Positions 9,860-63,599 of a stretch of 64,000 bases of DNA are shown piece after piece. Source of the stretch: Parcubacteria group bacterium (lineage in GTDB: Bacteria; Patescibacteriota; Minisyncoccia; 2-02-FULL-40-12); contig JACPLU010000006.1 in the NCBI GenBank assembly GCA_016186395.1, forward strand, positions 7,948-71,947, read 5' to 3'. Below the pieces are notes generated by a model. It had not been told where the DNA came from and ran no database searches. It saw only the letters and a program-made list of their open reading frames with translations. The position numbers and the translations under genes were made by a program. Positions within the stretch are counted from its first letter, which is position 1, and every line of letters starts with the position of its first letter.

Positions 9860-9870
9860 AGCCCAAAAAG

Positions 9871-23612: not shown

Positions 23613-23660
23613 AAATATATAAAATCACTGAAAAGTAAAAATAGAGTAAATAAATTTATC

Positions 23661-23768
<108 letters not shown>

Positions 23769-23776
23769 CATCCTTC

Positions 23777-34893: not shown

Positions 34894-34975
34894 AGCTAAA
34901 TGACTAATGACTAAAGACTAGGGCTTTTTTGATATTTTTAACTTTAGTCTTTGGACTTTAGACGCTAGACTACAA
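34893..34975. repeat. palindromic repeat-unit cluster downstream of gatC
   Basis: atgactaatgactaaagactagggc...actttagtctttggactttagacgctagac. Confidence 0.65.
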
Positions 34976-38371: not shown

Positions 38372-38937
38372 TCTTTTACAAATCTTGGGGAAAGTGAAGT
38401 TTGTAAATCAATACTGACTTCATCTTTACCTATACCGGCACTAAATCCAATTAAAACTGTAATTCGCGGTTGAGCCAAATCATTATAAGCATTGTTTTTA
38501 ACACAGAAATTAAGCGACTTTACCTGAACGTCGTTAGAGGTTAGCTGACCAGTTAAACCACCAACGGTTCTGTTAATTACCTGACCGGCCAAAGAGTAAA
38601 CCACGGTTCCATTAATCGGATGCTGAAAGGTTAAAGAAGTTTGAGAAGAAGCACTAGTACAGGAAGTATCAGGAATTCTCTGAAAATTATCTTGACACGC
38701 AGGATCGGTTGATATGCAATTTGCAACTCTTAATTCTCTGCCCATGATCTCAAAAATAAATTGAGCATTTTCTTGTATCTTTTGTATATTCAATGATTTG
38801 CCTTGCGTTCTAATCATAGATACAAAAATCGCACCCGTTATCGTCACTAAAATCCCTAGTGCAAACATGCCTATTATAAGTTCAACAAGAGAAAATCCTT
38901 TACTGAATATGAAATATTTTTTGAAAATTCCTTTCAT
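38368..38937 (-). CDS. type IV pilin-like / pseudopilin
   Basis: Prepilin N-methylation motif GFSLVELIIGMFALGIL. Confidence 0.65.
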   Translation of the reverse strand: MKGIFKKYFIFSKGFSLVELIIGMFALGILVTITGAIFVSMIRTQGKSLNIQKIQENAQFIFEIMGRELRVANCISTDPACQDNFQRIPDTSCTSASSQTSLTFQHPINGTVVYSLAGQVINRTVGGLTGQLTSNDVQVKSLNFCVKNNAYNDLAQPRITVLIGFSAGIGKDEVSIDLQTSLSPRFVKD

Positions 38938-38951
38938 AGCTGTACTTTAAG

Positions 38952-39455
38952 TTACTTCCAATCAAAAAGCCTAAGTTCAGCGGGTATAGTTTTTATTCCG
39001 CCTCTAACCGGCCAACTGACCGAAACAACAATCTTCTTTTCAGATAAAGATACGTCGGTAATAGTAATTTTTCTTTTAAATTTCGTACTAGTCCCACTTG
39101 TGTATTGATAAATGCCATCCACAGAAAATTTTAAAGCTTGATTTGAATCTGGAGCTAAACTAAAACTATCCCATTGAACCTGCCAAACGCCGACTGGCAA
39201 AGCAGAACTAAAAGTTCCACCACTTATCCATTTAGAATCTCTAATATTACGAACTACTTCTAAACCTTCTTGGGCCAAATTTATGGCGACTGTTTGATCC
39301 TGAATAAGGGTGGTAATACGAGAATTTGAACTAACAAATAATGTTAGCCCCGTTGAGACAAAAGCGAGAATACCCAAAGCAACCAAAGTTTCAACTAAGG
39401 AAAACCCCACACTAAACTTTTGACTTTTGACTTTTGACTTTTGACTTTTTATCAT
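38952..39455 (-). CDS. type IV pilin-like / pseudopilin
   Basis: GFSLVETLVALGILAFV. The N-terminus is KSQKSKVKSQK, encoded by a (TTTTGAC)x4 tandem repeat at 39421-39448. Confidence 0.65.
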   Translation of the reverse strand: MIKSQKSKVKSQKFSVGFSLVETLVALGILAFVSTGLTLFVSSNSRITTLIQDQTVAINLAQEGLEVVRNIRDSKWISGGTFSSALPVGVWQVQWDSFSLAPDSNQALKFSVDGIYQYTSGTSTKFKRKITITDVSLSEKKIVVSVSWPVRGGIKTIPAELRLFDWK

Positions 39456-40075
39456 TGTACTTCCGCTCTTCCACTTGTGTAAACAAAAATAATTTTACAG
39501 TCAGTGGTATTTATATAGCATAATTTTATTTGAAGAGGAGCAATATTAAGATTAGAATTATTATTTATATAAATTTTTGGATCAGGCGGCTCAAAAAAAA
39601 CATCTAAAAATGAAACCGAAAAGTTAACATTTTTTTCTAGAATAACTAAGGTTTGAAAAATCGTGTCTATTCCTGCCTGATAATTGTGGTTTGTATTTAA
39701 ACAATTAAGACTTTCTGTTGACCCCTTATAAATCTGATAATGAGTTGTGTCCAAGTACCGCATCCCATAACCGCAAATTTGGTTTGCTGCAAAACCTCTT
39801 CCGGCAATAGCTAATTCTTGAATCCTCCTCAAATCAGCCTGAATAGCCACAGCAGAACGTCTTACGGCCTGAAGCCTCCTTGCTTTGCTTCCAAAAGCGG
39901 ATAACAAAAATCCTGTCATCATAACAGTAATGGTAGCGATTATAATCACCTCTAAAAGAGTGAACCCCGTATCATTTTTTTGAAAAAAGTGGTGCTGGGC
40001 AAGTCCCGCCGCACTTTTTAGCTCTTTTTTGAATAATTCTGGTTTATTAAATGAAGTACTCATAGCATTAAACAC
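39452..40075 (-). CDS. type IV pilin-like / pseudopilin
   Basis: GFTLLEVIIIATITVMM. Confidence 0.6.
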   Translation of the reverse strand: MFNAMSTSFNKPELFKKELKSAAGLAQHHFFQKNDTGFTLLEVIIIATITVMMTGFLLSAFGSKARRLQAVRRSAVAIQADLRRIQELAIAGRGFAANQICGYGMRYLDTTHYQIYKGSTESLNCLNTNHNYQAGIDTIFQTLVILEKNVNFSVSFLDVFFEPPDPKIYINNNSNLNIAPLQIKLCYINTTDCKIIFVYTSGRAEVQ

Positions 40076-40162
40076 CTAATTGTTTTAAAAACCAAAAAGG
40101 GGCAACTAAGTATAGTATACCCCTCCATAAACCAAAAAAGAATACCCAGATTAGATAAAATA

Positions 40163-40633
40163 CTAATACAAAAACATAGAATTTTGTTCTAATCTTACTT
40201 CTATTAAATCTCCAGGGTTAAGCATGTGTTTGTCTAGGAGCCCACCAGAAATTACCTCCCCATTAACATACACCCTCCATGAACGTCCGTGATTATCTAA
40301 AACATTATTCAATTTAACAATGGTGATTTTACCACTTTCGTCTGTAAAACCAAACTGGATTTTATTAATAGTCGTAGCTTCAATAATGGCCCCCAAGACT
40401 GAAACCGGTTGTTCAAGCTCTCGTTGGAACTCTCTAGTATGGTCACCAAAATTGAAAACCAAAGAAACATTGCTATTTCTATTACCAAATATGGGAGAAT
40501 AAGGCACTTTAAAATACACCAAAAATAAAAATATAAATATGGCTAAAATTAAATACCAGACCAATTTAGAATTGTCGGATTTGATATTTTTTTTCTGAGC
40601 TGTAAATTCTGCAATTACTTGATCTAGTTCCAT
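40163..40633 (-). CDS. hypothetical membrane-anchored protein in the pilus cluster
   Basis: One N-terminal transmembrane helix. Confidence 0.4.
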   Translation of the reverse strand: MELDQVIAEFTAQKKNIKSDNSKLVWYLILAIFIFLFLVYFKVPYSPIFGNRNSNVSLVFNFGDHTREFQRELEQPVSVLGAIIEATTINKIQFGFTDESGKITIVKLNNVLDNHGRSWRVYVNGEVISGGLLDKHMLNPGDLIEVRLEQNSMFLY

Positions 40634-40650
40634 GGATTTAAAAATTTAAG

Positions 40651-41427
40651 TTAAAATTGCGACAATAAACTGATTGGAAAAATTAAAAGGAAAATAGAGG
40701 CAATAACAATAAACGTACCTAGTGGCAGTGGTGTTTTGCGATCGGCTTTCCTAAAAATAAGCAACAATATTCCCACCAAAGCCCCAAGAAAAAAAGTTAA
40801 ATAAAATACGTTAATAATTCTGGGAAAACCGAACAAAAAACCAATCCAGATTGCTAACTTTACATCGCCAAACCCAATCCATTGTCCAGAAGAAATAAAG
40901 AAAATCATTCCTAAAATACCCGCAAAAAACAACACCCCCCAAAAAGAACTCAACCAACTACAACTTAAATTTGAACAAATTATGTCTAAACTAACTCCAA
41001 ACTTAGTTAAAAATATGGCTATTAATGAAACCACAAAACCACTTATAATTATTTTGTCTAGGATTAAAAAATTAAATAAATCGACAAATGCTACCACAAT
41101 CAACAAACTTATCAGTATCCAGCTGTAAAAAATACTTAGAGTACCCAGATTACCAATAAAAATTGCTGACAAAAGAAAAAGGCATGCAGTGATAATCTCT
41201 ATTATCGAATAGCTTTTTGAAAATCCCTTTTTACAGTACCGGCACTTAGCCCTAAGCCATATAAAACTAAATACCGGTATTAAATCTTTCCAAGATAAAC
41301 TATGGTTACAATTCTCACACCTTGATCTACTCCATACCGTATCTTTATTCCTAGGTAATCTATAAATCAAACAACCCAAATAACTACCCACCACAAGTCC
41401 AACCAATACGCTAACTATTAAAATCAT
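40651..41427 (-). CDS. pilD: prepilin peptidase (A24 family)
   Basis: Zinc ribbon CENCNHSLSWKDLIPVFSFIWLRAKCRYCKK, then a polytopic membrane domain. Confidence 0.8.
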   Translation of the reverse strand: MILIVSVLVGLVVGSYLGCLIYRLPRNKDTVWSRSRCENCNHSLSWKDLIPVFSFIWLRAKCRYCKKGFSKSYSIIEIITACLFLLSAIFIGNLGTLSIFYSWILISLLIVVAFVDLFNFLILDKIIISGFVVSLIAIFLTKFGVSLDIICSNLSCSWLSSFWGVLFFAGILGMIFFISSGQWIGFGDVKLAIWIGFLFGFPRIINVFYLTFFLGALVGILLLIFRKADRKTPLPLGTFIVIASIFLLIFPISLLSQF

Positions 41428-41436
41428 CTAACTAGT

Positions 41437-41991
41437 TTATAGTGCTCCTACGTCGTATATACAGTCCTTGTCAAACGCTGTTGTGGCACAAACCTCTGAA
41501 GCGGCGGCGGAACCATCCACTTCAGCGCCACTGCCAGCCCAACCAGTTGAGTTAATATCAAAATCAGTATTTACTGCTTGAGCATTTTTAAGTTCCAATT
41601 CAGCCCATAAGTGAAATTGGGTTGGATTAGCAAGCGGAGCCCATTCATAACCATAACAACCAGCAGAACCACCATATACAGTACATCCGCTAGTTAAAGG
41701 ATCTTGAGGTAATCTAACTAAATATTTTGACACCAAAACGGTGGTAAGATCTGTAGTAACAGGATAACCTCCATTATCATCAAAATATTGCTCAACAGCA
41801 CCACGCACCTGGTTAATGTCAGCAATACGCTTAGCGTCTCTTGCCTTCCTACGAGCAGTGCCTAACTGAACAAGAAGTAAGGTCGCTAATGTCCCAATAA
41901 TGGCGATAACAACAAGCAATTCGACCAGAGTAAATCCCCTTCTGCCGTCGGCTCTCACTGCCGGCGAACGGAATAAATCTAAAATACGCAT
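41437..41991 (-). CDS. pilA: type IV major pilin
   Basis: Leader [19 protein letters not shown] | [21 protein letters not shown], a class III signal. The start is moved to the internal ATG. Confidence 0.75.
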
Positions 41992-42084
41992 AAAAATGTG
42001 ACACAATAATTAACTTTTACAACTCACGAAGTTCGTCATAAAAACTAACTATTTATGGCTAATTAAAGTTTATTAAATTTAAGA

Positions 42085-43287
42085 CTATCCAGCTCCTACT
42101 AAATTATAAATCGGCAACAAAATACTTGCAACTAAGATAGCCACACCTATTCCTATTAACAAAACTAGTATTGGTTCTAGTAAAGTCGATAAACTCTGGA
42201 GGGTTGTCTCTGCTTGAGTTTTATAAAACTTAGCCATATGTTCTAACATGAAATCTATTTTACCTGTTTTTTCACCAATTAAGACCATTTGAGAAACTAA
42301 CGGAGGAATTTCGGAATAATTCACAAAAACCGAGGAAATCGTACCCCCAGTGCTAACTTTTTCTTTTGCCTCCAATATTATCTTTTTATATACCGAATTA
42401 CTCACAACTTCTGAAGAAATTCTTAAAGCCTCGAGAATTGGTACGCCTGCTTTAATAAGGGTTGCTAAAGACTCGGCAAGCCTTGATATAAATATTCCTT
42501 TTGCGACTTCACCAATAATTGGGAATCGCAGTAAGTTCCTGTCAAAAAATTCTATGCCTGAATCGGTTTTAAAATATCTATAAGAAAATACTATTAGCCC
42601 GATAAAACCAATTACAATAAACCACAAAAACCTTTGAATAAAATGAGAAGTAAAAATTAAAACCCTAGTAGTAAACGGCAAGTCGGTTACTCCCGCTTCT
42701 TCTAAAACTCCTAATAATTGTGGGATAACGGTAACCATTAAAAATATGGTTACGCCTATAAGCGCAAACAATATAAATATTGGATAAGAGAGAGCTCCCT
42801 TTGTTTTAGATTTTAATTCCTGTGATCTTTCCAAATGATCTGCCAAGTAAAGCAATACGTCATGCAGTTTCCCGGAGGCTTCGCCGGATCTGACTAAACT
42901 TATATAAAAATCAGAAAATATATCTTGATGGACTGAAAGCGCTTTTGAAAAAGAGGCCCCGGCTTCTACTTCAGCGGCTAGTTGAACAAGCACTTTTTGT
43001 AAAGCCGGATTAGTTGCTTGACGGGCCAAAGTATTTAAACTATCAACAAAAGGAACATCTGCATCAACTAGAGTGGCTAACTGTCTTGTAAATTCTGCCA
43101 AATCTTTCTCTTTAACTCTGTGAAAAAACGTGCCTACATCTTTTGCGAACACCTTGTTAGCTTCCAAACTTAGTATAACTAGTCCTCTTTGATGTAATAC
43201 AGAAACGGCTTCTTCTTCAGAAGAAGCTTCTACCCTGCCTGATAAAATCTTACCATCTATAGATTTGGCTTGATAAGAATATTCCAT
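42085..43287 (-). CDS. pilC: type IV pilus assembly platform protein PilC (GspF family)
   Basis: Two T2SS-F repeats and three transmembrane segments. Confidence 0.85.
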   Translation of the reverse strand: MEYSYQAKSIDGKILSGRVEASSEEEAVSVLHQRGLVILSLEANKVFAKDVGTFFHRVKEKDLAEFTRQLATLVDADVPFVDSLNTLARQATNPALQKVLVQLAAEVEAGASFSKALSVHQDIFSDFYISLVRSGEASGKLHDVLLYLADHLERSQELKSKTKGALSYPIFILFALIGVTIFLMVTVIPQLLGVLEEAGVTDLPFTTRVLIFTSHFIQRFLWFIVIGFIGLIVFSYRYFKTDSGIEFFDRNLLRFPIIGEVAKGIFISRLAESLATLIKAGVPILEALRISSEVVSNSVYKKIILEAKEKVSTGGTISSVFVNYSEIPPLVSQMVLIGEKTGKIDFMLEHMAKFYKTQAETTLQSLSTLLEPILVLLIGIGVAILVASILLPIYNLVGAG

Positions 43288-43289
43288 CC

Positions 43290-44372
43290 TTACAATAAAT
43301 CCTTTAATCCTCTCGGGTTAACAGAATGAAATTCTGCTTGTTCTATTGTGATTTCTCCTCTTTTTACCAGTTCGGCTAAAGATCGATTTAAAGAAATCAT
43401 TCCTTCTTCATTACTTGTATCAATGACTGTGTTTAGTTGTTGAATACGATTCTCACGTATTAAATTTCTAACAGCGTTGTTTGCAATTAGAATTTCGGCT
43501 GCCGGAATAAGTCCCCCCTTTATTCTTGGGATCAATCGTTGAGAAATTATACCTGAAAGAGTATTTGAAAGCTGGACCCTGACTTGAGACTGTTGAGCCG
43601 GCGGAAAACTGTCAATTATTCTGTCTATCGTTTGAACGGCACTATTAGTATGCAAAGAGGCAAAAACCAAATGACCGGTTTCAGCAGCTGTTACAGCGGC
43701 ACTCATGGTTTCATAATCTCTCATCTCTCCAACCATAATGACATTAACATTTTGTCTGAAAGTCGAACGCAAGGCTTTATGAAAAGACAAAGTATCTAAA
43801 AAGAGTTCTCTCTGATCTATAATTCCGTTTATTGGAGTAAACAGGTATTCAATTGGATCTTCAATGGTAACAACTTTATCCGCCCTCTCACGATTAATTA
43901 TATCTATTAGAGAAGCCATTGTGGTTGATTTCCCGTGACCGTTTGGCCCAACAACTAAAACAAATCCTTGGGATATTTTACTAAATATTTTGATTATTGG
44001 TGGCAAATTTAATTCCTCAATAGTTGGAATTTTATTCGGGATATATCGGAGGGTCGAGCTTATGTAGCCCTTGGTATAATAAACATTAACCCTGAATCTA
44101 AAATCATTATCAAATATATATGAGAAATCTAATTCTTTTTCTCCTAGAAAACGGTTTTTTCTTGCGTCCCCAAGCAATGCAAAAGCTAAACCAGCAGACG
44201 CGTCTGGATCCAAAATGGGATACTGTTCCAGCGGTATTAGCCTTGAATCAACCCTAACCATAGGTTTATTGCCGGGCGATAAATGCAAATCCGATGCTCC
44301 TGCTTGAGCGGTATCATGCATAATTCTTTGAAGCAACTCCTGATAATTCTGACTCATAAATAAGGTGAGCAA
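43290..44372 (-). CDS. pilT: twitching-motility / retraction ATPase PilT
   Basis: VVGPNGHGKSTT Walker A, VTIEDPIEY, and the His box. Confidence 0.85.
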   Translation of the reverse strand: MLTLFMSQNYQELLQRIMHDTAQAGASDLHLSPGNKPMVRVDSRLIPLEQYPILDPDASAGLAFALLGDARKNRFLGEKELDFSYIFDNDFRFRVNVYYTKGYISSTLRYIPNKIPTIEELNLPPIIKIFSKISQGFVLVVGPNGHGKSTTMASLIDIINRERADKVVTIEDPIEYLFTPINGIIDQRELFLDTLSFHKALRSTFRQNVNVIMVGEMRDYETMSAAVTAAETGHLVFASLHTNSAVQTIDRIIDSFPPAQQSQVRVQLSNTLSGIISQRLIPRIKGGLIPAAEILIANNAVRNLIRENRIQQLNTVIDTSNEEGMISLNRSLAELVKRGEITIEQAEFHSVNPRGLKDLL

Positions 44373-44467
44373 TAATTCGTGAAACGTGAATCACGATGCT
44401 TTAAAAATGTGCGTGAACCAAGTTTCATGTTTTATGCCTCACGTTTTAAGTTTTATATTCCATATCT

Positions 44468-46213
44468 TCAAGCATTTCCCAATTCGGCTACTTGGAATAA
44501 TTCTTCCAAAGAAACCATACCTTCCAACACCTTAAGTATACCGTCCAAAAACATAGAAGTCATCCCCTGTCGTTGAGCCTCCTTTCTAATAGCCGTTTCC
44601 GATAAATCGGTTGAAATAATTTGTTCAAGCTGTTGTGTAATTTCCAAAACCTCAAAAATAGCAATCCGTCCTTTGTAAGCTTTACCACCACATTCTTTAC
44701 AACCCTTTTCACTTGCTTTCCATATAGCAAAGCCAGAAGAAGGATATTTTTTCCTGTCCGCTGGGGTTAGCTCTTCCAATGCTTGTTGAATTGTCTTTTC
44801 TTCAGCCACATTTGCCTTGTCTTTTACTCTACAATTTGGGCAAAGCCGTCTTAAAAGTCTTTGGGCAAGCCCTAAGTTCAGAGTTGGAGCAATAAGGTAT
44901 CTTTGCACACCCATATCAACAAATCTTGGAATAATTCCAATAGCGTCGTTAGTATGCAAAGTTGAAAATACCAAATGCCCGGTTAGGGCGGCATGTGTAG
45001 CCAATGAAGCCGTCTCACCATCTCTTATCTCCCCTACCATAATCATATCTGGGTCTTGCCTTAAAATGTGACGCAATCCAGAAGAAAAAGTGTAACCAAT
45101 TTCTTCTTGAACTTGAGATTGGCTTATTCCCTCAATTAAAAATTCAATTGGATCTTCAAGGGTAACGATATTTATTCCCTCTTCGTTAACCATTCTAAGC
45201 ATTGCATACAAAGTAGTAGTCTTACCAGAACCGGTTGGTCCAGTAATTAAAATGCTTCCAAATGGTTTTTTAAGATTCTCTTCAACCAACTTTAAATTTC
45301 TCCCGCTAAGACCCAATTCTGGCAAACTGACCAAACCCACAAGAGGATCTAAAATTCTTAAAACCACCTTTTCCCCGTGACGAGTCGGAAAGGTCGACAC
45401 CCGAAAATCAATCTTTTTATCATCTACATGGGTACTAAAACGCCCATCTTGGGGTAAACGCGTTTCATCTATCTTAAGATCAGATAAAATTTTAATCCTT
45501 GTACTAATTGAGGAGTGCAAAGACTTTGGCAAAATAATTGCCGTTGTCAAAAAACCATCAATTCTGAAACGAATTCTTAGTTTATCTTCTTGAGGTTCAA
45601 TATGAATATCACTTGCCCTACCTTCTACGGCATGCCTTATAATAACCGCCACGGCTTTAGTAATTGGGGCTTCTTCGGTAAGTGTTTCTGGGATGGACTT
45701 AGCTTGAGCCTTAACTTCTCCCTTACCTAATTCTTGCTTTAAAGATTCTAATGCCTCTTTAACCTCTCCTGTTAAAGTTGAATACCCTTTAACAATCGCT
45801 TGATAATTTTTATAACCAAGGAGATATTTTTCAAGCTTCAAACCATTATCTGCAGCGATAAACTTTAATGCCTCCATTGCATCTAAATCTTCGGGGTTTA
45901 ATATGCCCACTTTCAATACACTTTCCACTTTTTCAAGAGGAACTACTTTATAAAAGCGTGCAACGTCTTCTGAAACAAACCTCAAAACGTCCGAAGATAT
46001 TTGTTGAGGATCAAAAGTAACTTTAGGTATTTTATATAACTGACTTTTAACTTCTAAAAGATCTTCGTCCGTTATTAATTCTTTTTCTATCAATAACTGA
46101 CCAAAATCTTTTTCGAATTTTTGAGCCTCCTGAATAATGGCTTCCGAGGTTTTCTCGTCAGTGACTCCTTGCTTAATAAAATAGTTAAGAAGAGTTTGAG
46201 GAATTTTAATCAA
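44468..46213 (-). CDS. pilB: type IV pilus assembly ATPase PilB (GspE family)
   Basis: N-terminal GspE_N domains, ITGPTGSGKTTT Walker A, and a C-terminal zinc motif CPNC...CKECGG. Confidence 0.9.
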   Translation of the reverse strand: MIKIPQTLLNYFIKQGVTDEKTSEAIIQEAQKFEKDFGQLLIEKELITDEDLLEVKSQLYKIPKVTFDPQQISSDVLRFVSEDVARFYKVVPLEKVESVLKVGILNPEDLDAMEALKFIAADNGLKLEKYLLGYKNYQAIVKGYSTLTGEVKEALESLKQELGKGEVKAQAKSIPETLTEEAPITKAVAVIIRHAVEGRASDIHIEPQEDKLRIRFRIDGFLTTAIILPKSLHSSISTRIKILSDLKIDETRLPQDGRFSTHVDDKKIDFRVSTFPTRHGEKVVLRILDPLVGLVSLPELGLSGRNLKLVEENLKKPFGSILITGPTGSGKTTTLYAMLRMVNEEGINIVTLEDPIEFLIEGISQSQVQEEIGYTFSSGLRHILRQDPDMIMVGEIRDGETASLATHAALTGHLVFSTLHTNDAIGIIPRFVDMGVQRYLIAPTLNLGLAQRLLRRLCPNCRVKDKANVAEEKTIQQALEELTPADRKKYPSSGFAIWKASEKGCKECGGKAYKGRIAIFEVLEITQQLEQIISTDLSETAIRKEAQRQGMTSMFLDGILKVLEGMVSLEELFQVAELGNA

Positions 46214-50143: not shown

Positions 50144-50312
50144 AGCCATAAAACATTAAGCCTGAACCTTAAATCTTATAACTTGGAGAAATATCCGTTC
50201 ACTTAAACTTTAGCATTCTATAAAAAGTTTGGCTTCAAAAAGGAGGGTTTTTGTGTTAAGATTTTCGTGACTCAAGATTCAAGTTCCATGATACAGTAAC
50301 GATGTAAAAACT

Positions 50313-55348: not shown

Positions 55349-55762
55349 TTACGGAGGAGTAATCGCCGGCAATTTAGTAGTTTGACCCACTAAATCCGGA
55401 TTAATAACGTTTAAGATAAGCCAAGCGGAAAGAACTAAAGCAAAACCCAAAAGCGCATTACTCATTTTTTCTTTAGCCGATTGGACTTTTGTTAAATTTG
55501 GTCCGGCAAAAAACCAATCAATTCCAGCCCTTAGAAACTGAACAAACATGGCCAAACCGACTACCCAAATCCCAAGAGTAAATAAATAATTAAACAGACC
55601 ACCTAAATCCTGAATGTTTGCTGGATCCAAAGATCCACTTCCTAATTTTGGCAGATAACGAACAAAAGCAACCTCTGCAGAAGCCTTAGAAACTAAAATT
55701 AAAAATGACCCAAAAAGAATAAATAGGATGCTGAATATATTTTGTAATTTAATCTTTTTCAT
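55349..55762 (-). CDS. VirB2/TrbC-like pilin, putative
   Basis: 137 aa: long signal peptide, then two hydrophobic helices. Sits just upstream of the VirB4-like ATPase. Confidence 0.4.
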   Translation of the reverse strand: MKKIKLQNIFSILFILFGSFLILVSKASAEVAFVRYLPKLGSGSLDPANIQDLGGLFNYLFTLGIWVVGLAMFVQFLRAGIDWFFAGPNLTKVQSAKEKMSNALLGFALVLSAWLILNVINPDLVGQTTKLPAITPP

Positions 55763-57569
55763 TTGAATTTTTTTCTTGTATCCACTGCTTTTTGGCCTCC
55801 TGAATTTCCAAAATTTGTCTCGGATCAGAAGTAATAATCTGATCTTCAGTATAAGATGCGACTACTCTAATTGCAATGTGATTTTGGGAGGCAAAAAATA
55901 AACCATGGCCGACTTTTGACTCCAACAGGATAAATTTTTCCGCATCTGTAAGATTAAAAGCATCTTTTACCTGTTCTGCGGCCGCAGGTGATTGCTTCAT
56001 TAATATCTGCATGGATGAATTAGTTATAATCGGCTTACCCATTGGGGAGTCTAAAAAATCTGGAACATCTTGGGAGATTGTAGTTAATCCCAAAAAATAT
56101 TTCCTAGCTCTTTTGGCAACATTCAACATAAAGTTAGCTCCAGTCTGATTACGCATAAGCCACCAGGCCTCATCAACCGCAAGAATACGTTTTCTAAGTT
56201 TTGATCTAATCTTTGCCCAAATATGATTCAAAACCAAGTACATAGCTATTGGTTTTAGTTCGTCTTCCATATCGCGAATGCTAAAAACAACCAGTGGATT
56301 ATCCAAGGACGTATTTGTAGGTTGATTCAAAAAACCAGCCAAAGTTCCTTCGGTAAATCTTTTCAAACGGGCAACTAGAGATTCCGCCCCAACCATACCT
56401 TCCAGAACAGATTGCAAATCAGAAAGTAACGGCGGTTCTAATTTTGAAAAATCAGACTCCGGCGTTATATCTTTTATTGCATAGGTCTGTCTTAAACCCT
56501 CGTCAACAATTGACTCTTCCTCTGGAGTAAAGTTACCCAACATTACTCTTAAAAGTCCGGTTAAATCAAGAATATGAGTACGGAACACATCTCCCGGCTT
56601 TTCATCCTCTCTGGGGGTAGGCAAATCAAATGGATTAATGTGTTGGTCTGAAGAAATAGAAATTTTCACAAAAGAACCCCCCATTGTTTCGGATAAATAT
56701 TTATACTCATTTTCAGGATCAATCACAAAGACCTGTGTTCCAAACATCAAACTTCTTAAAATTTCCAATTTTACGGTATAACTTTTACCGCCTCCGGATT
56801 TACCAAAAACAACTTCATTCGCATTTTCCAAACTAAACCTGTCAAAAAGTACTAAAGAATTATTATGCAAATTTATTCCATAAAGCAAGCCCTTGGTTTG
56901 AGTTAAATCGTAAGAAACAAACGGAAAGCTTGAAGAAAGAGGTTCGGTATTTAAAGAAGTGTGGAGAAGCAATTGATCACTACCAAGAGGCACGGTTGAC
57001 ATAAAACCTTGGGCCATTCTGAAAGTCGCCGGCTTTACATAAACCAACTGGGACTCCAAAATTCCTCTGATTCTACGTTCCAATTCGTCCAACTCCTTGA
57101 TTGATTCACCGTAAATCGTGATGTAAAAACCGGCCTGAAAAAAACGATCCGTTCCCTGCTGTAATTTGTCCCTAAGGACTTCAATATCTCCAACGGCTGT
57201 CTCAAGAATTGGATCCCGAACCTTTCCCTGCTCTGCTTCTTCGATCCGTTGAGCTTCAAGTCTGGTAAGTTTATCACGTAATTTTTTTAAAATTGCAGGC
57301 GTATCCGCAGGATGAATGTGAATTGCCGCATCTATTTGTTGATCAAGATTAATAATTTGAGAAAGCCAATTTGTATTTAAAAATCTTGGAAAAGAAGAAA
57401 TAAAAAATGTCCGGCCGACAATTGCACCCACTTGAAAATCGTTTGAACCGATATTTATAGCTGCCGGCGCTAAAAGTTCAACCAATCCTTTTGGTTTTGG
57501 GGATTCAATTTTTTCTTTTTTCTTTCCAAAAAACGGTAAAGCCAATGCTACTTTTGAAACACGGGACAT
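55749..57569 (-). CDS. VirB4/TrbE-family conjugation ATPase, middle and C-terminal ATPase portion
   Basis: LVELLAPAAINIG...VGRTFFISSFPRF, Walker A VVFGKSGGGKSYTVKLEILRSL, VFVIDPENEY, Walker B RILAVDEAWWLM. Confidence 0.8.
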   Translation of the reverse strand: MSRVSKVALALPFFGKKKEKIESPKPKGLVELLAPAAINIGSNDFQVGAIVGRTFFISSFPRFLNTNWLSQIINLDQQIDAAIHIHPADTPAILKKLRDKLTRLEAQRIEEAEQGKVRDPILETAVGDIEVLRDKLQQGTDRFFQAGFYITIYGESIKELDELERRIRGILESQLVYVKPATFRMAQGFMSTVPLGSDQLLLHTSLNTEPLSSSFPFVSYDLTQTKGLLYGINLHNNSLVLFDRFSLENANEVVFGKSGGGKSYTVKLEILRSLMFGTQVFVIDPENEYKYLSETMGGSFVKISISSDQHINPFDLPTPREDEKPGDVFRTHILDLTGLLRVMLGNFTPEEESIVDEGLRQTYAIKDITPESDFSKLEPPLLSDLQSVLEGMVGAESLVARLKRFTEGTLAGFLNQPTNTSLDNPLVVFSIRDMEDELKPIAMYLVLNHIWAKIRSKLRKRILAVDEAWWLMRNQTGANFMLNVAKRARKYFLGLTTISQDVPDFLDSPMGKPIITNSSMQILMKQSPAAAEQVKDAFNLTDAEKFILLESKVGHGLFFASQNHIAIRVVASYTEDQIITSDPRQILEIQEAKKQWIQEKNSNEKD

Positions 57570-57658
57570 GGAACTTGAAACTCAAGATTTACGATTCACG
57601 ATTCAAGATTCAGGTTTCATGATTCAAGTTTCATATTCTATGGTTCAAGTTTTATGTT
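57570..57658. repeat. low-complexity, hairpin-forming repeat spacer (TTCAAG/CTTGAA and GTTTCATG motifs) between the two VirB4 ORFs
   Basis: gaacttgaaactcaagatttacgattcacgattcaagattcaggtttcatgattcaagtttcatattctatggttcaag. Confidence 0.6.
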
Positions 57659-58318
57659 TTATGTTACAGGTTTCACCTCCTCCAGTTTAATGGTTTCTGG
57701 TGATCTCGGATTATAAAGCTGATAATAAAGATTTGCTAATTCGTCCTTAGAAAGTAAACGCGTCTTTAAACTCATTGACGATAGCCCTTCTTCCACTAAA
57801 GCCAGTCTTTGTCTTAATTGCCCGCTAAAAGTTTGGAACTGTTCATCGCTTAACTGTTGAACACCCGAAGCAGAAGAAGTTTTAAAAATTCCGCTAAGAT
57901 TTTTTAAAAATCCGCCTTTTGAAATTGATTCAACAAAGTAAAAAGGGACAACTATATAAAAATGCCTGCTCATAATATTTGCCAGTTCCACCAAACCTTT
58001 GATGTATCTTGAGTACTCTATCGCCTGAATTCTCAATAATTCGTTGTCCAAATTTTTAATTAATTCTTCCAACTCCTGAAGATAAGACTTTATGTTAAGT
58101 TTTCTTGAACTAACAACAATTTGAGCAGGAAAATCAAGTGAGTTTAAAAACTCCTGAAATCTGTGCAAAATGGCCACTTGTTCATCTTGCGATCTCAATT
58201 CAAAGTTAATCGAGCCGACTTCTAATACGGCACGAAGAGTGCCGTTTTTTAATATCACAATGTCGTCTCTTATATCCGCGATTTCTATAAATTGTAAAGT
58301 TGATTGATTTTCAGCCAT
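57659..58318 (-). CDS. VirB4 N-terminal-domain-like protein (separate ORF)
   Basis: LQFIEIADIRDDIVILKNGTLRAVLEVGSINFELRSQDEQVAILHRFQEFLNSL resembles the VirB4/TraC N-terminal region. The combined length with the downstream ORF is 219 + 606 aa, close to a full VirB4. Confidence 0.45.
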   Translation of the reverse strand: MAENQSTLQFIEIADIRDDIVILKNGTLRAVLEVGSINFELRSQDEQVAILHRFQEFLNSLDFPAQIVVSSRKLNIKSYLQELEELIKNLDNELLRIQAIEYSRYIKGLVELANIMSRHFYIVVPFYFVESISKGGFLKNLSGIFKTSSASGVQQLSDEQFQTFSGQLRQRLALVEEGLSSMSLKTRLLSKDELANLYYQLYNPRSPETIKLEEVKPVT

Positions 58319-58421
58319 GATACTTGAGACATGAAACCTGAAACATAGAATATGAAACTTGAAACTTAGAACTCGAGATTCAAGATTCAGGTTTCATGTT
58401 TCATGGTTCATGATTCATGAT
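58319..58421. repeat. palindromic member of the same repeat-spacer family
   Basis: catgaaacctgaaacatagaatatgaaacttgaaac ... caggtttcatgtttcatggttcatg; the two halves are near reverse complements. Confidence 0.6.
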
Positions 58422-58757
58422 TTATACTTCCGGTTTGTTTGTTCCCTGAATAAATGACTGCACATCTAAGTCAGATTTTTCTTCTTTTCTAAAAAAGTAT
58501 CTTTTTGGACCAAAAGTATAAGAAATAGCTAATGACATGTACTGAATTAATGGCAAACCTTCAATCCTAACAAAGGCCATAGATCCGAAAAAAGCGATCA
58601 CAAAAACTGCAATTGTAAAAAATAAAACCCCGCTAAGCAATCGAAACAGTAACAGCAGAAGTCCGACACCCAAGGCTACCCAAATAAACTGTTGGATCGT
58701 AAATGGACCAACTACTTTAACTTCTGTTTCTATAAATTGTGGGACTTGGAATCTCAT
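58422..58757 (-). CDS. small membrane protein, VirB3-like by position
   Basis: 111 aa with two transmembrane helices, directly upstream of the VirB4 pieces. Confidence 0.3.
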   Translation of the reverse strand: MRFQVPQFIETEVKVVGPFTIQQFIWVALGVGLLLLLFRLLSGVLFFTIAVFVIAFFGSMAFVRIEGLPLIQYMSLAISYTFGPKRYFFRKEEKSDLDVQSFIQGTNKPEV

Positions 58758-58833
58758 TGGGGCTTAAAACATAAAACTTAAATCTTGAAACCTGAATCTT
58801 GAATCTCAAGTTCTAAGTTCCAAGTTTCATAAT
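58758..58833. repeat. third member of the repeat-spacer family
   Basis: aacataaaacttaaatcttgaaacctgaatcttgaatctcaagttctaagttccaagtttcat. Confidence 0.55.
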
Positions 58834-59391
58834 CTATGGTTTGTTTCTCAGGTCTACTACATTATTTGACGGTTTTGGTTGTGCAATAACCGGCGGCCGA
58901 GGCGGCAATGGTCTTGGTACTTCTGGATTTCTAAATTCATTTTGTAATGATTTTGCCTGGGACTGGTTTGACACTCCAGGAGTTGCCTGAACGGAAAACT
59001 TCTGAATGTGCATTTGTTTCAATTGCGGCAGAATGGGTTGAAAAATTTGATTAATCACAATTGCCGCGATTTGTTTTGCTGTTTCCTGATCAAGTTGCAG
59101 CCTTTCCCCTATTTGTTTAATAACATCTCCCAAATAAACCCAGCCCAAAATAATTTCCATTAACAATTTAGCCAATTCCGAACTTTTCTTTTCATCTAAT
59201 TTAAACGGTATAGCAATTGAATCTTTAAGTTGATGCGGCATTTCTGATTCAAAAATAAAGGTCCGAATATATTGACTCAACCCCATCAAAGCATCCATAA
59301 ATTTGGCAGACTTAAAACTATTGCCTTTAATTTCTGAGGTGTAAACGTTGTATGGGTCAAAATTTATTAATTCTGAAATAGAAACTGGCAT
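58834..59391 (-). CDS. hypothetical protein with a Pro-rich C-terminus
   Basis: 185 aa; EVPRPLPPRPPVIAQPKPS. Confidence 0.4.
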   Translation of the reverse strand: MPVSISELINFDPYNVYTSEIKGNSFKSAKFMDALMGLSQYIRTFIFESEMPHQLKDSIAIPFKLDEKKSSELAKLLMEIILGWVYLGDVIKQIGERLQLDQETAKQIAAIVINQIFQPILPQLKQMHIQKFSVQATPGVSNQSQAKSLQNEFRNPEVPRPLPPRPPVIAQPKPSNNVVDLRNKP

Positions 59392-59409
59392 AATAATAGA
59401 TTTAAAGAA

Positions 59410-61524
59410 TTACTCGCCTTGCGCTTGTCGCAATATGTCTAATTCGTCTTCATTCTCTTCTTGAGTATTTGGCGTTGATGGAAAAACATCATCTCGAATT
59501 TTTTCAAAGTACTCTCTTCTACCAGCATTTTCTTCGGCTACTTTTTGTTCTAGAGTTCTAAACAGATTTGTGGCTGATTTCTCATTTTTATTCTTAGCTT
59601 GCACAAAACGATTGACAATATCTTCTCTAACATTTTTTAGTTCCTCCTCACTAAGATTAGCAAGAGCAGAAGGAGAAAGACCATTTACAATTTTAAATCT
59701 TTCGGTTTCTTCGGTCAGTCGTTCTTTCAACGGGATGTTTGAATCCTTTGAATTTGAAGCAGAAGCTCTGGCTTTTGCAACTACTGATGGCGCAATCTTA
59801 CTCATTGCGGATGCAAAAGCTCCTTCATCTTTAACTTTTTCGGAAGTGTTCGGTTTTTCACCCATAACTTGTAGGGCGGTAACATAGGTGTCTAAATCCT
59901 GCATCATTGTAGCAGCAGTTCGCTTGGCTTGTTTACTATCAGACTGAAGCCAAGAGTAAAAAGTTTTTCTTGCATTTAAATCTGTTTGTAAAATACCGCC
60001 CTTGCCAAAAGTTCTTTCTAAAAGTTCCTTTGATACCTTAGCAAAGTCCTTATCCTTCATCTTAGATACTAAATCATTAATAACCTGGGTTTGACTGCCA
60101 TAATCATTTAGAGTGCGCTGGAATGTCGCGTCATCCATAATTCCCTCTTCTGCGGCTTTCATCATTAACGCCAGATGCCTTTCTTTATTTATACCCTTCC
60201 TATTAAGCTCTGACTTAATATATGCCTGCATTTCTTCTTTGGTCGTGAAACCTTTTTGGGCTATTTCATCATTTAATACTTCTTTAGTGTGCTTACCTGC
60301 CTGGCTTACTAATACTCTTTGATCCTGAAGACTTGGAATGCCGGCAAGCCCTCCAATAAGTCCGCCAACTTTTGCTTCGGCCCTTTCTTTGCCTTGCGGA
60401 CCAAACAGTCTTCTTTGAGTACCGGGAATGCGAACACCCTGTTCTTTAATGCCTTTCCATGCCATTTTCGCACCGCCCGGAATACCAGTTAATCCCCAAA
60501 TCCCACCTGCGGCACCGATTGTAACTTTCGCCGCCATTCCGCCTATTGAGTTGGCCGCCATATAGCCTGCAACTAGAGTTACGACTGCAAGAACGAATTT
60601 CCCTATGGAAGCAGAAATTGCCGTACCCAAACCCGTCTCACCACTTGCTAATTGGGCTATTATGGTTTCATCCGACCTAACCAGAAAAGTAATGCCGATG
60701 TACATAAAGAAAAGATAAATGGGCAAAAAATAGTTCCAATATAAGAATTTGTCCCACCACCATTTTTTATAGCGCTCCAAATACGGAAACGCATAGGCCA
60801 AGAATGCAAAGGGAGCGAATACAAGCAAAGTCCATAGAAATGGCAAACGGATAAAAATAACAAGCGCAGACAATATTAAAGCCAAAGCCCAAATGGCTAG
60901 AAATATCGTGCCGATCGTAAGATTAATAAAACCAATGCTTGCCGCATCAACCACGGCATTGGCTATTCTTACAAAGAAATTCTGATCGGCATTTGAATTA
61001 ATATCTGCAGAAGCAATTCTAAAAGCTTGAGATACGGCTGAAAGCTTATACCCTGGATTGCCAATGGCTTTTGCAAAAACGTCTGCCAGGAAATTAAAAC
61101 CGTCAATTATTACTTGGCCGATTACAAGACTAAAATTAATTAACAAAGCGGCAATAATAATTTTTGGCAGTAGTGTTTTAGCATTATAGCGCTTAACATC
61201 AAAGATTGTGCTAAAAGCAACGACCAATAAAAGCAGAATAAAAAACATATTCATAAAATCCCGAACAATGGACCACATATCAAAAAGTACCTTGGAATTT
61301 GTAAAATTATTTAAAAAATCACTGGTTAGCAAATAACCAATGAAATCTCCAAACGCCTGAATCAAACCGGCTAACATTGCATTTACGGCAACCAACAAAG
61401 CGGTTTCAAGGACAAGTGCGTTAGCGAATTTAGGCAACATTAAAAGAACGATAGAAAAACACACAACCCCCATTTTGAAAGTTGTTTTTTTATGAGATTG
61501 TTTTAAATTATTCTGGGTAGGCAT
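59410..61524 (-). CDS. VirB6/TrbL-like polytopic membrane protein with a long hydrophilic C-terminal extension
   Basis: At least 8 transmembrane segments in the first ~350 aa, followed by about 350 aa of charged coiled-coil-like sequence. Called by position and topology only. Confidence 0.4.
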   Translation of the reverse strand: MPTQNNLKQSHKKTTFKMGVVCFSIVLLMLPKFANALVLETALLVAVNAMLAGLIQAFGDFIGYLLTSDFLNNFTNSKVLFDMWSIVRDFMNMFFILLLLVVAFSTIFDVKRYNAKTLLPKIIIAALLINFSLVIGQVIIDGFNFLADVFAKAIGNPGYKLSAVSQAFRIASADINSNADQNFFVRIANAVVDAASIGFINLTIGTIFLAIWALALILSALVIFIRLPFLWTLLVFAPFAFLAYAFPYLERYKKWWWDKFLYWNYFLPIYLFFMYIGITFLVRSDETIIAQLASGETGLGTAISASIGKFVLAVVTLVAGYMAANSIGGMAAKVTIGAAGGIWGLTGIPGGAKMAWKGIKEQGVRIPGTQRRLFGPQGKERAEAKVGGLIGGLAGIPSLQDQRVLVSQAGKHTKEVLNDEIAQKGFTTKEEMQAYIKSELNRKGINKERHLALMMKAAEEGIMDDATFQRTLNDYGSQTQVINDLVSKMKDKDFAKVSKELLERTFGKGGILQTDLNARKTFYSWLQSDSKQAKRTAATMMQDLDTYVTALQVMGEKPNTSEKVKDEGAFASAMSKIAPSVVAKARASASNSKDSNIPLKERLTEETERFKIVNGLSPSALANLSEEELKNVREDIVNRFVQAKNKNEKSATNLFRTLEQKVAEENAGRREYFEKIRDDVFPSTPNTQEENEDELDILRQAQGE

Positions 61525-61531
61525 AAATGTA

Positions 61532-62641
61532 TTAGTTACAAGTTATCTTAGAAGAAGTACTGCTACTTTGATCAATTGTACAAGTGGGATTGGGTAGTGC
61601 TGTAGGAACCGGTGTCGGAATGTTTAAATTTATGTTACAGTTTTCTATATTACCGCTTTTAATCTGTGCCTCCGAACACTCGGGCAAAGGAGTGGTTGGT
61701 AAAGGTGCCGGATTACCAAGGCTAGCATTAGGACCCAACAATTTATCTACAACTAAAGAAACTATCAAACCGCCCAGTTCTCCAATCTCATCCGCGCTTA
61801 TTAAATTTTCCAGGTTCGCTCTTATTGCCTCCGAGGTTGAATCACTTAGAACACTGCCGGGAATACCAATTGTGTTTTTAATAATACAGGAGGCATAACT
61901 AAAGTTTTGTTCTCCTCCCTGAATATTATATATACAGCCACTACCCGGTCTTTTACTTAAAAAGCCCCCACCGGCCTCGGCTTCAGATTTATTTGCTTCT
62001 TTATTGACTTGCTTTTGTTTTTCTAACTCATTGGCGCTTAAAAATACTATGCCGCCCAAGGTATTGCCCGGAGCAAAAAGTTCAGTTAACCTGTTCCAGT
62101 TTTTCCCACTAAATAAGTCCTTTTCGATTTCGTCCGCAGACTTATTTGCAAAGTCAGAGCATCTAACTTGAGTTAAAAAACTTGAAATATCGGTTTTGTC
62201 TTGATTTATGCGACCAAACTGACTTGTATTAACAAGATTTAAATTAAGATTTGTAAAAATGTGTCCCACTATTTCTCTGTATTTATCGCAAATCACAGCA
62301 CCACCACCCCTAAAATTTCCTCCCCCTTCTAATGCTCTTTTTAACTCTATGGCAAAAATGTTCTCACCTCTTAATTCTGAATTAAGTAAAAACTTACGCC
62401 AATCAAATACTATTGCCGCTTCTTTACCCCCTATACCGCCGGTTTTAACGCTATCTATCATCTTAGATACTGTTTTATTTAAAAAAGTTGTACCAAGGGT
62501 TTTTACAATCTGATCAAGAACTAATTCTTTAAGTATCAACGGATTTAAAAAAGCCATAATTGCTCCACCGTTTACAACTGAAGGCAAGAAAAAAGTCAAA
62601 ATGATTATTACCGCTAAGATTTTTTGAGAGTATTTTTTCAT
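61532..62641 (-). CDS. secreted Cys-containing hypothetical protein
   Basis: Signal peptide MKKYSQKILAVIIILTFFLPSVVNG. Confidence 0.4.
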   Translation of the reverse strand: MKKYSQKILAVIIILTFFLPSVVNGGAIMAFLNPLILKELVLDQIVKTLGTTFLNKTVSKMIDSVKTGGIGGKEAAIVFDWRKFLLNSELRGENIFAIELKRALEGGGNFRGGGAVICDKYREIVGHIFTNLNLNLVNTSQFGRINQDKTDISSFLTQVRCSDFANKSADEIEKDLFSGKNWNRLTELFAPGNTLGGIVFLSANELEKQKQVNKEANKSEAEAGGGFLSKRPGSGCIYNIQGGEQNFSYASCIIKNTIGIPGSVLSDSTSEAIRANLENLISADEIGELGGLIVSLVVDKLLGPNASLGNPAPLPTTPLPECSEAQIKSGNIENCNINLNIPTPVPTALPNPTCTIDQSSSTSSKITCN

Positions 62642-62642
62642 T

Positions 62643-63599
62643 CTATTTGGTCAAAGATAAAAGGAATAAAAGATTATTGGTTGGCAATTCTAATTGAGAG
62701 TTGCTGATTTTTATTAAAATATCGGTGATTACAGTTTTTAATTCTTCATTAAGTTGTGGGTACATGCTTACTGAAAATATTGCTTTAAGAGGATCCTCGT
62801 TCTGCTGACGAATACCCTCAAAAAGTGTTTTATATTTTCTAGTTATGACAATGATGGCTTTATGATTTGAGGCCCAAGAACTAGGCACAATAATTGAAAG
62901 CTCCTCTTGATATAAGCCTTCTAATACTTTAACAAAGTTCACCCCAAGTTCCACCGGATTTATTGCAGCTTGTATTTGAGCAAATTGAGGATTAACGCTT
63001 AAAATTTTCTCGGCAAGGGTTGAAAGTTTAATTATGTAATCTTTAACTACTTGAGGAGAGTTATCATCTGAAGTTGGAAAATTTATTTCTTCTTCGATGG
63101 TAAAAAGTTTCTGATTTATACCCGCAATTCCGTTAGCAAGATTTTCTATGTTCGTTCTAACTGAATCAGAATCACCATTCTGACGACTTATGTCACCGGA
63201 TAAAATTGCTCCGGCCGTTAAATTAGAGGCTAACTCCGTAAGATTTTGCGTGTCTTTGACTGCCTGATTTTTTGATTCAACAAATTTACCAAAAGATAAT
63301 GGGCAGTCGTCTGTTGAATTTAACGGATTGCAGTTGGCCGTGACCTCGTCTCCATCTAGAAAACCATCTCCATCAGTATCAGAATTATACGGATCAGTAT
63401 TAAAATAGGACTCTTCCCTGTCGTATAAACCGTCGTTGTCGCTATCAATTTTGGTTGGGTCTTGAGTTGTCTCTGGGTCAGTTATTTTAAAAGCTACGCC
63501 AGTTGAATTTCTAGAAACAGATTGAACTATCAAATAAACTAAAACTACCGCCAGTACAGCCAGCGCTCCTAAAACAATCTTTATTTTGTTGGGGATCAT
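62643..63599 (-). CDS. membrane-anchored or secreted protein with thrombospondin type 3-like Ca-binding Asp-rich repeats
   Basis: DSDNDGLYDREESYFNTDPYNSDTDGDGFLDGDEV. Confidence 0.45.
   Translation of the reverse strand: MIPNKIKIVLGALAVLAVVLVYLIVQSVSRNSTGVAFKITDPETTQDPTKIDSDNDGLYDREESYFNTDPYNSDTDGDGFLDGDEVTANCNPLNSTDDCPLSFGKFVESKNQAVKDTQNLTELASNLTAGAILSGDISRQNGDSDSVRTNIENLANGIAGINQKLFTIEEEINFPTSDDNSPQVVKDYIIKLSTLAEKILSVNPQFAQIQAAINPVELGVNFVKVLEGLYQEELSIIVPSSWASNHKAIIVITRKYKTLFEGIRQQNEDPLKAIFSVSMYPQLNEELKTVITDILIKISNSQLELPTNNLLFLLSLTK

Follow-up and report, generated by a model that had tools for sequence, protein, structure and literature searches.

Among the type IV secretion systems (T4SSs) of Patescibacteria, TrsD is the commonest component, with 2,272 homologues of which 1,664 adjoin virB4, and in Southlakia epibionticum it is recorded as essential (Quinonero-Coronel et al. 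2025, PMC12102498). The patescibacterial MPF-FATA-like systems described there, whose prototype is TrsD/TrsE of the staphylococcal plasmid pGO1, are chromosomal and place a PrgI/VirB3-like gene, a TrsD-like gene and virB4 next to one another, with a VirB2-like pilin and a polytopic VirB6-like candidate nearby; TrsD is a remote homologue of the VirB4 N terminus, and its position beside virB4 is already published for Patescibacteria and for pGO1-type systems. Here we describe a T4SS gene cluster of the same make-up in a 64,000-nucleotide stretch of a Parcubacteria group bacterium (assembly GCA_016186395.1, contig JACPLU010000006.1; this whole stretch is called the window, and positions refer to it unless another locus or a profile is named). 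The adjacency of the three genes, the pilin and VirB6-like candidate nearby, the chromosomal location and the remote homology of TrsD to VirB4 are as in the published systems. Unlike in that description, three junctions between genes are filled with repeats, and otherwise nothing essential differs. Repeat-filled junctions are not mentioned in PMC12102498, in whose text the word "intergenic" occurs 0 times.

Tandem heptamers are themselves described in bacteria. Long simple-sequence repeats (LSSRs) with heptanucleotide units are, in the part of the work of Mrazek (2007) that is relayed in PMC4679880, the most abundant class among repeats with 5–11-nt units, and they are attributed to polymerase slippage. 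TAACTGA repeats in Beggiatoaceae, Cyanobacteria and Bacteroidetes lie just upstream of start codons without ribosome-binding sites and have been proposed to be regulatory in Beggiatoaceae; BOGUAY has 169 direct repeat sets and one indirect repeat only (MacGregor 2015, PMC4679880).

The cluster consists of eight co-directional genes, all on the minus strand and transcribed from position 63599 to position 55349. At its centre, in the order of transcription, lie a 76-nt spacer at the p185/prgI junction (spacer 3, 58758–58833), prgI (58422–58757), a 103-nt spacer at the prgI/trsD junction (spacer 2, 58319–58421), trsD (57659–58318), an 89-nt spacer at the trsD/virB4 junction (spacer 1, 57570–57658) and virB4 (55749–57569). 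Each spacer is a palindrome whose arms are heptamer arrays. The other five junctions are tight (1, 7 and 18 nt, a 14-nt overlap of the pilin start with the virB4 stop, and 1 nt after the pilin). We give a probability of about 0.7, as a joint figure for all its parts, to the following explanation: the locus is a standard chromosomal T4SS operon of the monoderm (MPF-FATA-like) type in a Yanofskybacteria-like bacterium of the Paceibacteria (Patescibacteria); the division of VirB4 between two genes is ancestral and not the product of a recent split; and the spacers belong to a palindromic element that is dispersed and specific to this genome, and are secondary colonists of ancestral junctions of a few nucleotides.

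The larger of the two VirB4 pieces, a 606-aa open reading frame (ORF), is a VirB4 ATPase without the N-terminal ~180 residues. It matched profile NF045971 (conju_CD1110) at 339.2 bits (cut-off 325; E = 5e-101) over profile positions 189–732 of 752, scored 82.7 bits against Pfam P-loop_TraG with further matches to AAA_10 and DUF87, and matched the C-terminal domain of Thermoanaerobacter VirB4 (PDB 4AG5) with E = 3e-38. Residues 124–545 align to residues 301–733 of TrwK. The ORF combines, as a member of the VirB4 family should, a profile match above the curated cut-off with a P-loop ATPase domain.

The 219-aa ORF upstream of it corresponds to the VirB4 N terminus and is a TrsD/TraC-like, stand-alone homologue of the first ~180 VirB4 residues. 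It aligned with positions 101–233 of the NCBIfam VirB4 family NF045975 (E = 5e-12), with positions 5–173 of TIGR00929 (VirB4_CagE) and with positions 12–119 of the CD1110 profile; the 606-aa piece begins at position 189 of the latter, so the two cover it in a complementary way. Similarity to the TrsD/TraD family NF041427 was found at E = 5.5e-7 and 29.6 bits, under the family cut-off of 200. The ORF itself had no match in the Pfam scan nor among PDB sequences, and its homologues (n = 373; the 120 listed are 200–250 aa long), which come from Candidatus Yanofskybacteria and other Parcubacteria/Paceibacteria, carry the Pfam family PF26593 (TraC-like) in precomputed annotation. A Foldseek search with an AlphaFold model of the ORF (25 homologues, pLDDT 76) returned TrwK/VirB4 of plasmid R388 for all of the top 14 PDB matches, with probabilities up to 0.99 but E-values of 5e-3 to 0.1 and low TM-scores. 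When the 219 and 606 aa were joined in silico, residues 4–768 were collinear with TIGR00929 positions 5–725 of 792, and the E-value improved from 5e-33 to 8e-37. We propose that the N-terminal domain of VirB4 is shared between two genes, its first ~180 residues coming from trsD and its remainder, together with the ATPase, from virB4. These matches, with those of PrgI and the pilin given below, bear out much of a preliminary description of the locus made from the sequence, namely that it is a T4SS-like cluster, that the small ORF resembles a VirB4 N-domain and that 219 aa plus 606 aa sum to a normal VirB4; the ORF and gap positions in that description were also right, with spacers of exactly 89, 103 and 76 nt. 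It had further asked whether the junction maps to a domain linker. The junction falls at about TrwK residue 175–180, within the N-terminal domain and not at the boundary between the N-terminal and ATPase domains.

The preliminary description had raised the possibility that a small insertion family split virB4. A recent insertion into an intact gene would account for a spacer that lies exactly between two pieces whose lengths sum to that of a normal VirB4, and yet the relatives make such an event scarcely credible. Our comparison set comprised 80 genomic loci from different Paceibacteria species, across which the gene order p318-p369-B6-p185-PrgI-TrsD-VirB4 recurs. Both trsD and virB4 are present in 77 of them, and in 77 of 77 they are separate ORFs, usually with a gap of a few nucleotides or an overlap (median gap 5 nt; <50 nt in 62 of 77); no fused single-ORF VirB4 was found among the relatives. 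A relative with a 70% identical TrsD lacks spacer 1 and has a trsD/virB4 gap of only 4 nt. The prgI/trsD gap is likewise <50 nt in 59 of 76 relatives. The layout is also that of a Firmicutes plasmid, Geobacillus pGspE55-1, on which a PrgI-family gene, a hypothetical gene matching the N-piece (TrsD-like) and a DUF87 VirB4 follow one another; a stand-alone gene of ~200 aa between prgI/virB3 and virB4 is thus found in the window, in the 77 related loci and on this plasmid. To this is added the published adjacency of TrsD and virB4 in Patescibacteria and pGO1-type systems. Because relatives keep two ORFs without spacers, the split was not caused by the spacers, which are missing from most related clusters. 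We conclude that a T4SS cluster with a two-gene VirB4 is already known biology, normal in Patescibacteria and in some Gram-positive plasmids.

Two further candidates for a continuous VirB4 were considered and set aside. Programmed bypass or fusion across spacer 1 was rejected on inspection of the sequence, as there is no matching take-off and landing codon and relatives are split without the spacer. A 792-aa ORF in a Moranbacteria locus (L073, 5890–9040) is not a fused VirB4: an in-frame stop in trsD takes the place of a Ser of its relatives, and VirB4 carries a separate N-terminal extension of ~200 aa. In three other loci (L019, L022 and L030) the VirB4 ORFs are 1149–1248 aa long, about twice the normal length, which suggests C-terminal fusions.

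The spacers share one architecture. Read on the transcribed strand, each is an array of a degenerate heptamer (NTGAAWC) followed by an array of its reverse complement, in a single 7-nt register that is held from stop codon to start codon (12 units in spacer 1 and 14 in spacer 2). This heptamer underlies the motifs TTCAAG, CTTGAA and GTTTCATG that occur in the spacers. The units of spacer 2 are AT CATGAAT CATGAAC CATGAAA CATGAAA CCTGAAT CTTGAAT CTCGAGT TCTAAGT TTCAAGT TTCATAT TCTATGT TTCAGGT TTCATGT CTCAAGT ATC. Tandem Repeats Finder returned periods of 7 and 21 in the spacers (7, 14 and 21 in spacer 3), and TGAA repeated three times at 7-nt spacing gave 16 matches against 1.4 expected, a count reached by 0 of 100 shuffles. 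The exact 20-mer TGAAACCTGAATCTTGAATC is common to all three spacers, on the opposite strand in spacer 3, and the complementarity of spacers 2 and 3 is 81% across 89 nt. Heptamer periodicity in spacer 1 extends into the last trsD codons and the first virB4 codons. Each unit of the 5' arm holds TGA, TAA or TAG, so that all three frames are stopped within 21 nt.

All three spacers are predicted to form hairpins that are more stable than dinucleotide shuffles, with minimum free energies of −15.8 kcal/mol (z = −2.25) for spacer 1, −29.9 kcal/mol (z = −4.52) for spacer 2 and −21.8 kcal/mol (z = −4.21) for spacer 3. With the flanking codons folded in, the distance between the upstream stop codon and the predicted stem is 0–9 nt. 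The basal helix predicted for spacers 1 and 2 takes in the downstream AUG, and the predicted stem of spacer 3 runs from the stop codon to a point 7 nt short of the AUG. Both the common family of the three spacers and their hairpin-forming character had been proposed in the preliminary description, and both hold. Its statement that 58319–58421 (spacer 2) is almost perfectly palindromic was right as to the palindrome and overstated as to its quality: 47-nt arms are 70% and 42-nt arms 76% complementary, with 34 pairs in 103 nt.

Repetitive, hairpin-forming sequences in a parasitic-bacterium lineage in which TIGR-Tas systems exist (PMC12045711) could be read as intrinsic terminators or attenuators, or as guide-RNA arrays of the CRISPR or TIGR kind. 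We regard this as barely tenable. There is no terminator-like site at any of the three spacers, whose stems are AT-rich, carry periodic mismatches and lack a U-tract; promoters and intrinsic terminators within the spacers were not found beyond chance; and Rfam returned no family at gathering score at any spacer and only four tRNAs in the window. A TIGR array is composed of 36-nt units, each with two 8–12-nt repeats and 9-nt spacers, and lies beside a Nop-domain Tas gene (PMC12045711), unlike the arrays here, which have only periods of 7, 14 and 21, no interspersed unique spacers and T4SS genes as neighbours.

Heptamer repeats are found throughout the window. Period 7 is the only period among 3–12 with repetitive 42-nt windows in the 64 kb, where it forms 8 distinct regions, against 0 in a 50-kb E. 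coli control stretch; counted as arrays or palindromes, there are at least 12. Similar copies stand at unrelated intergenic sites, as is typical of dispersed palindromes: besides the three strong copies in the T4SS cluster, a weaker NTGAAWC-type palindrome (44373–44467; predicted fold −16.1 kcal/mol) fills the pilB/pilT junction between two genes for T2SSE ATPases, and another weaker copy lies at 50144–50255. A second family has the unit GWCTAAA/TTTAGWC (CTAA at 7-nt spacing, 18 matches against 0.75 expected). It forms a palindrome at 10620–10700, a few nucleotides before a start that is labelled secE-like only from a reading of the N-terminal peptide (period-7 identity 0.77–0.86; z = −3.83), a palindrome at 34895–34975 directly upstream of the Pfam-assigned gatC (z = −2.54), a palindrome or array at 5556–5684, an array at 9423–9465 that ends 6 nt before the rplK start, and the inverted partner of that array at 9820–9870, on the other side of a 23S_rRNA_IVP gene.

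Like heptanucleotide LSSRs, cyanobacterial short tandemly repeated repetitive (STRR) sequences and TAACTGA repeats, these arrays have tandem 7-nt units in runs far above chance, are mostly intergenic, end within a few nucleotides of start codons without a Shine-Dalgarno motif and occasionally have in-frame copies within ORFs. They differ from the BOGUAY TAACTGA repeats in that an array is usually joined to an inverted copy, to give a long, periodically mismatched hairpin that fills an operon gap, and from the single fixed heptamer TAACTGA in that the units are degenerate and genome-specific. Short, imperfect palindromes of ~75–140 nt that are dispersed between genes, also inside operons, are familiar from the REP/BIME, Correia/NEMIS, RUP/BOX and other MITE-like elements. 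With these the spacers share similar copies within a genome, orthologous sites that differ and a patchy presence between close relatives; unlike them, their arms are tandem arrays of heptamers (sometimes of 8–10-nt units) and their copies overlap the flanking stop and start codons. We would class the elements as a palindromic form of heptanucleotide simple-sequence repeat whose dispersal is REP/MITE-like. No description of palindromes of inverted heptamer arrays in Patescibacteria was found in the searchable literature library.

The 20-mer common to the spacers also occurs in 86 Joint Genome Institute (JGI) metagenome stretches, most of which are long NTGAAWC-type arrays on contigs of 43–57% GC; the GC content of the window is ~0.33–0.41. 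The arrays in these contigs (L087–L172; for example L088 at 4395–4435, L089, L110, L120, L087 and L126) have up to dozens of units; many stop exactly at an ATG, and inverted pairs occur in a few cases. One array contig encodes a PorE-family protein of the type IX secretion system, which points to Bacteroidota, and the NTGAAWC heptamer recurs in lineages as distant as such Bacteroidota-like contigs.

Relatives carry the same kind of element with other units. The long gaps in orthologous operons of other species are mostly an array plus an inverted array that gives a periodically mismatched hairpin, built from TAGGTGA, CAGGTGT, AAAATNN, TACGAAT, TTAACGAR and others. We analyzed gaps across the related loci because a stricter detector of periodic hairpins was too insensitive (it found 1 element in the window). 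Co-directional gaps of 45–200 nt had a fold z ≤ −3 in 38% of cases inside the operon and 34% outside. Among gaps of this length, periodicity was seen in 60% of those inside the operon (13% after shuffling) and in 36% of those outside it (8% after shuffling), and period 7 was the commonest.

Copies within one genome can be nearly identical. In a Yanofskybacteria genome (L035) a 99-nt element stands 97% identical at the PrgI/TrsD and TrsD/VirB4 junctions (5890–5995 and 6600–6730) and takes in the last codons and the stop of both upstream ORFs, which gives two unrelated proteins a shared, element-encoded C terminus; in L005, within-genome copies are 96% identical over 56 nt. Orthologous sites, in contrast, differ between close relatives. 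Two loci with 96% identical VirB4 have a 0-nt gap (L002) and a 103-nt spacer (L006) at the same junction. Three strains with a TrsD 95% identical to that of the window (L081, L082 and L083) have the unit family of the window at the spacer 2 junction in a different number and arrangement, and their TrsD ORF extends into the array by seven more codons, up to a TAG. The contigs of these strains (short-read ENA contigs of 800–965 nt) all end inside heptamer spacers, on the virB4 side; short-read assembly of this lineage breaks off at the repeats, which draft genomes may show in collapsed form.

The elements, then, fill the whole gap from stop to start, overlap the flanking ORF ends and belong to families found elsewhere in the genome; their unit number appears to vary between near-identical strains, and they are present or absent between close species. 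We suggest that the p185/prgI, prgI/trsD and trsD/virB4 junctions, which are of a few nucleotides in most relatives, each gained a palindromic element, that the elements spread by duplication or gene conversion, and that the arrays lengthen and shorten by replication slippage. Tolerance could come from the predicted fold. The hairpin would set the upstream stop beside the downstream start at the base of the stem, so that ancestral stop-start coupling can persist, and the 5' arm would terminate any reading frame. Judged from sequence, the elements are most likely dispersed repeats that the genome tolerates and that may change how translation is coupled.

A regulatory effect, if there is one, would be exerted by a hairpin that sequesters the AUG. 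Motifs of the Shine-Dalgarno type (GGAG, GAGG or AGGA at −18 to −4) precede 13 of 64 crude gene starts in the window and 0 of the 8 T4SS genes, and the organism appears to rely mostly on initiation without one. A special shortage of such motifs downstream of the spacers was considered and dropped, as only 13 of the 64 window genes have one at all. Because these motifs are this rare and AUGs are paired, a regulatory effect is possible. A stronger proposal is that the hairpins are selected RNA elements, whether REP-like stabilizers, RNase III/E processing sites or coupling devices that set the output of PrgI, TrsD and VirB4. Their predicted stability (z of −4.5 and −4.2), the enclosure of stop and start codons by the stems and the rarity of Shine-Dalgarno motifs, which should make structure at start sites matter, agree with it, as do the recurrence of analogous hairpins with unrelated units at the same two junctions in other species and the enrichment of long spacers there (Fisher p = 5.6e-4). 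We nevertheless hold selection for an RNA function to be possible but, on balance, unlikely. Elements of this type show no advantage of the sense strand in stability or G-U pairing (sense more stable in 20, antisense in 23; p = 0.93). The same types also occur away from operons, in front of unrelated housekeeping genes and within ORFs, and the gaps in question are <50 nt in most relatives, as counted above for both junctions that flank trsD. In one close strain (L081) the hairpin is weak.

Several points weigh against our account of the spacers as tolerated secondary colonists. Spacers of at least 50 nt occur at the two trsD-flanking junctions in 32 of 153 cases and at the three upstream junctions in 6 of 107 (Fisher p = 5.6e-4, uncorrected for the shared descent of the loci), an enrichment that hints at selection rather than neutrality. 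The spacer 2 hairpin of L081 is no better than shuffles (z = −0.09; the contig ends in the repeat, which may be collapsed), and so the structure is not strictly kept. No target-site duplication or terminal signature was identified in the comparison of the filled site in L006 with the empty site in L002, whose flanks are too diverged, and no RAYT- or IS-type transposase was identified, although no search for one was made; mobility is for this reason inferred only from the similarity of copies and their patchy presence. Translational coupling across the hairpins stands as a proposal.

An action at the level of DNA would fit the palindromic symmetry without strand bias, the apparent difference in unit number between strains with 95% identical TrsD and the position of the arrays against start codons, as in the TAACTGA repeats of Beggiatoaceae (PMC4679880). 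The arrays would then bind a regulator or nucleoid protein, or would be hypermutable contingency loci in which the number of units switches expression of the secretion machine (phase variation). We think this quite improbable: arrays also lie before or inside housekeeping genes (rplK, the secE-like gene, gatC, gatA and gatB), which is unexpected for contingency loci, the unit sequences differ between genomes, and no candidate binding protein was identified.

The boldest statement that these observations allow is a doubtful one, well short of what we would defend. It holds that Paceibacteria carry undescribed miniature dispersed palindromes with heptamer-array arms, the 5' arm bringing stops in three frames and the 3' arm start codons, that these are inserted in the exact interval from stop codon to start codon of closely packed operon genes, with frequent overlap of those codons, and that they have been repeatedly recruited, with unrelated units, at the junctions flanking trsD, where they might tune or phase-vary the PrgI:TrsD:VirB4 ratio of a machine on which related epibionts depend to grow on their hosts.

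The remaining genes complete an MPF-FATA-like cluster, in which a PrgI/VirB3 gene, a VirB2-like pilin gene and a VirB6-like gene lie near virB4. The 111-aa PrgI (VirB3-like) small membrane protein matched Pfam PF12666 (E = 2.7e-9; 37.9 bits, cut-off 27). The T4SS pilin (VirB2-like; 137 aa, 55349–55762) matched Pfam PF18895 (28.7 bits, cut-off 26.6) and has a signal-like segment plus hydrophobic segments. The 704-aa polytopic membrane protein (59410–61524) has 7–8 hydrophobic segments within its first 320 residues, and its homologue sits upstream of PrgI in most related loci. Because it has no Pfam or NCBIfam profile match and no PDB match, the label VirB6-like refers to topology and conserved position only; the firm assignment to VirB6 was dropped, and of the VirB6-like polytopic protein in the preliminary description the topology and position stand without profile or structural matches. 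The conserved hypothetical p185 (185 aa, 58834–59391) gave no significant family match in the Pfam and NCBIfam scans, and in 41 of the 80 related loci a weak homologue (20–38% identity) is found at this position.

Two proteins with N-terminal hydrophobic segments are encoded at the head of the cluster. The first gene, p318 (318 aa, 62643–63599), encodes an N-terminal membrane anchor, its single hydrophobic segment at residues 8–26, and bacterial TSP3 (calcium-binding) repeats (Pfam TSP3_bac, E = 7e-10); 44 of the 80 related loci gave a homologue (BLAST E ≤ 1e-5), and wherever p369 also had one the two were neighbours, with that of p318 directly upstream. The protein p369 (369 aa, 61532–62641) has a signal-peptide-like N terminus with a hydrophobic segment at residues 8–26 and a conserved position in related loci, and matched nothing in the Pfam or NCBIfam profile scans. 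Those scans found no relaxase or coupling protein among the eight cluster genes, and no dedicated search of the rest of the window was made.

Several heptamer arrays lie in frame within genes. In gatB, arrays at 4808–4839 and 5167–5229 encode NQKSKIKNQK and LKTKANNESLKTKA; in gatA, an array at 34062–34091 encodes ENCKLKIEN; and in a pilin-like gene, an array at 39416–39449 encodes KSQKSKVKSQK in a type IV pilin-like leader, just before GFSLVE. They look like tolerated insertions in loops or leaders. A type IV pilus cluster (37997–46213) comprises PilB (44468–46213), PilT (43290–44372), PilC (42085–43287) and several pilin-like genes. The 23S_rRNA_IVP family gene (117 aa, 9466–9819; Pfam E = 5.7e-34), between a nusG-like gene and rplK, is bracketed by inverted GWCTAAA arrays, as if a cassette had landed in a palindrome or had been enclosed by one. 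At 23659–23769 the 35 nt at the 3' end of a tRNA-Met gene form a perfect tandem repeat (2.1 copies, 100% identity), and ACCA follows the second copy; either the 3' half of the tRNA is truly duplicated or the assembly is at fault.

For annotation, the consequence is that the pair of trsD and virB4 should not be recorded as a pseudogene or a disrupted gene. The repeat deserves notice for its filling of gaps from stop to start, its overlap with ORF ends, its in-frame presence in the essential genes gatA and gatB, and its recurrence at the same T4SS junctions in different species. If such repeats do affect translation in Shine-Dalgarno-poor genomes, they would offer a cheap way to modulate the stoichiometry of an operon. 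If they do not, they remain useful as a marker of rapid turnover between genes, and in practice they fragment assemblies in the candidate phyla radiation.

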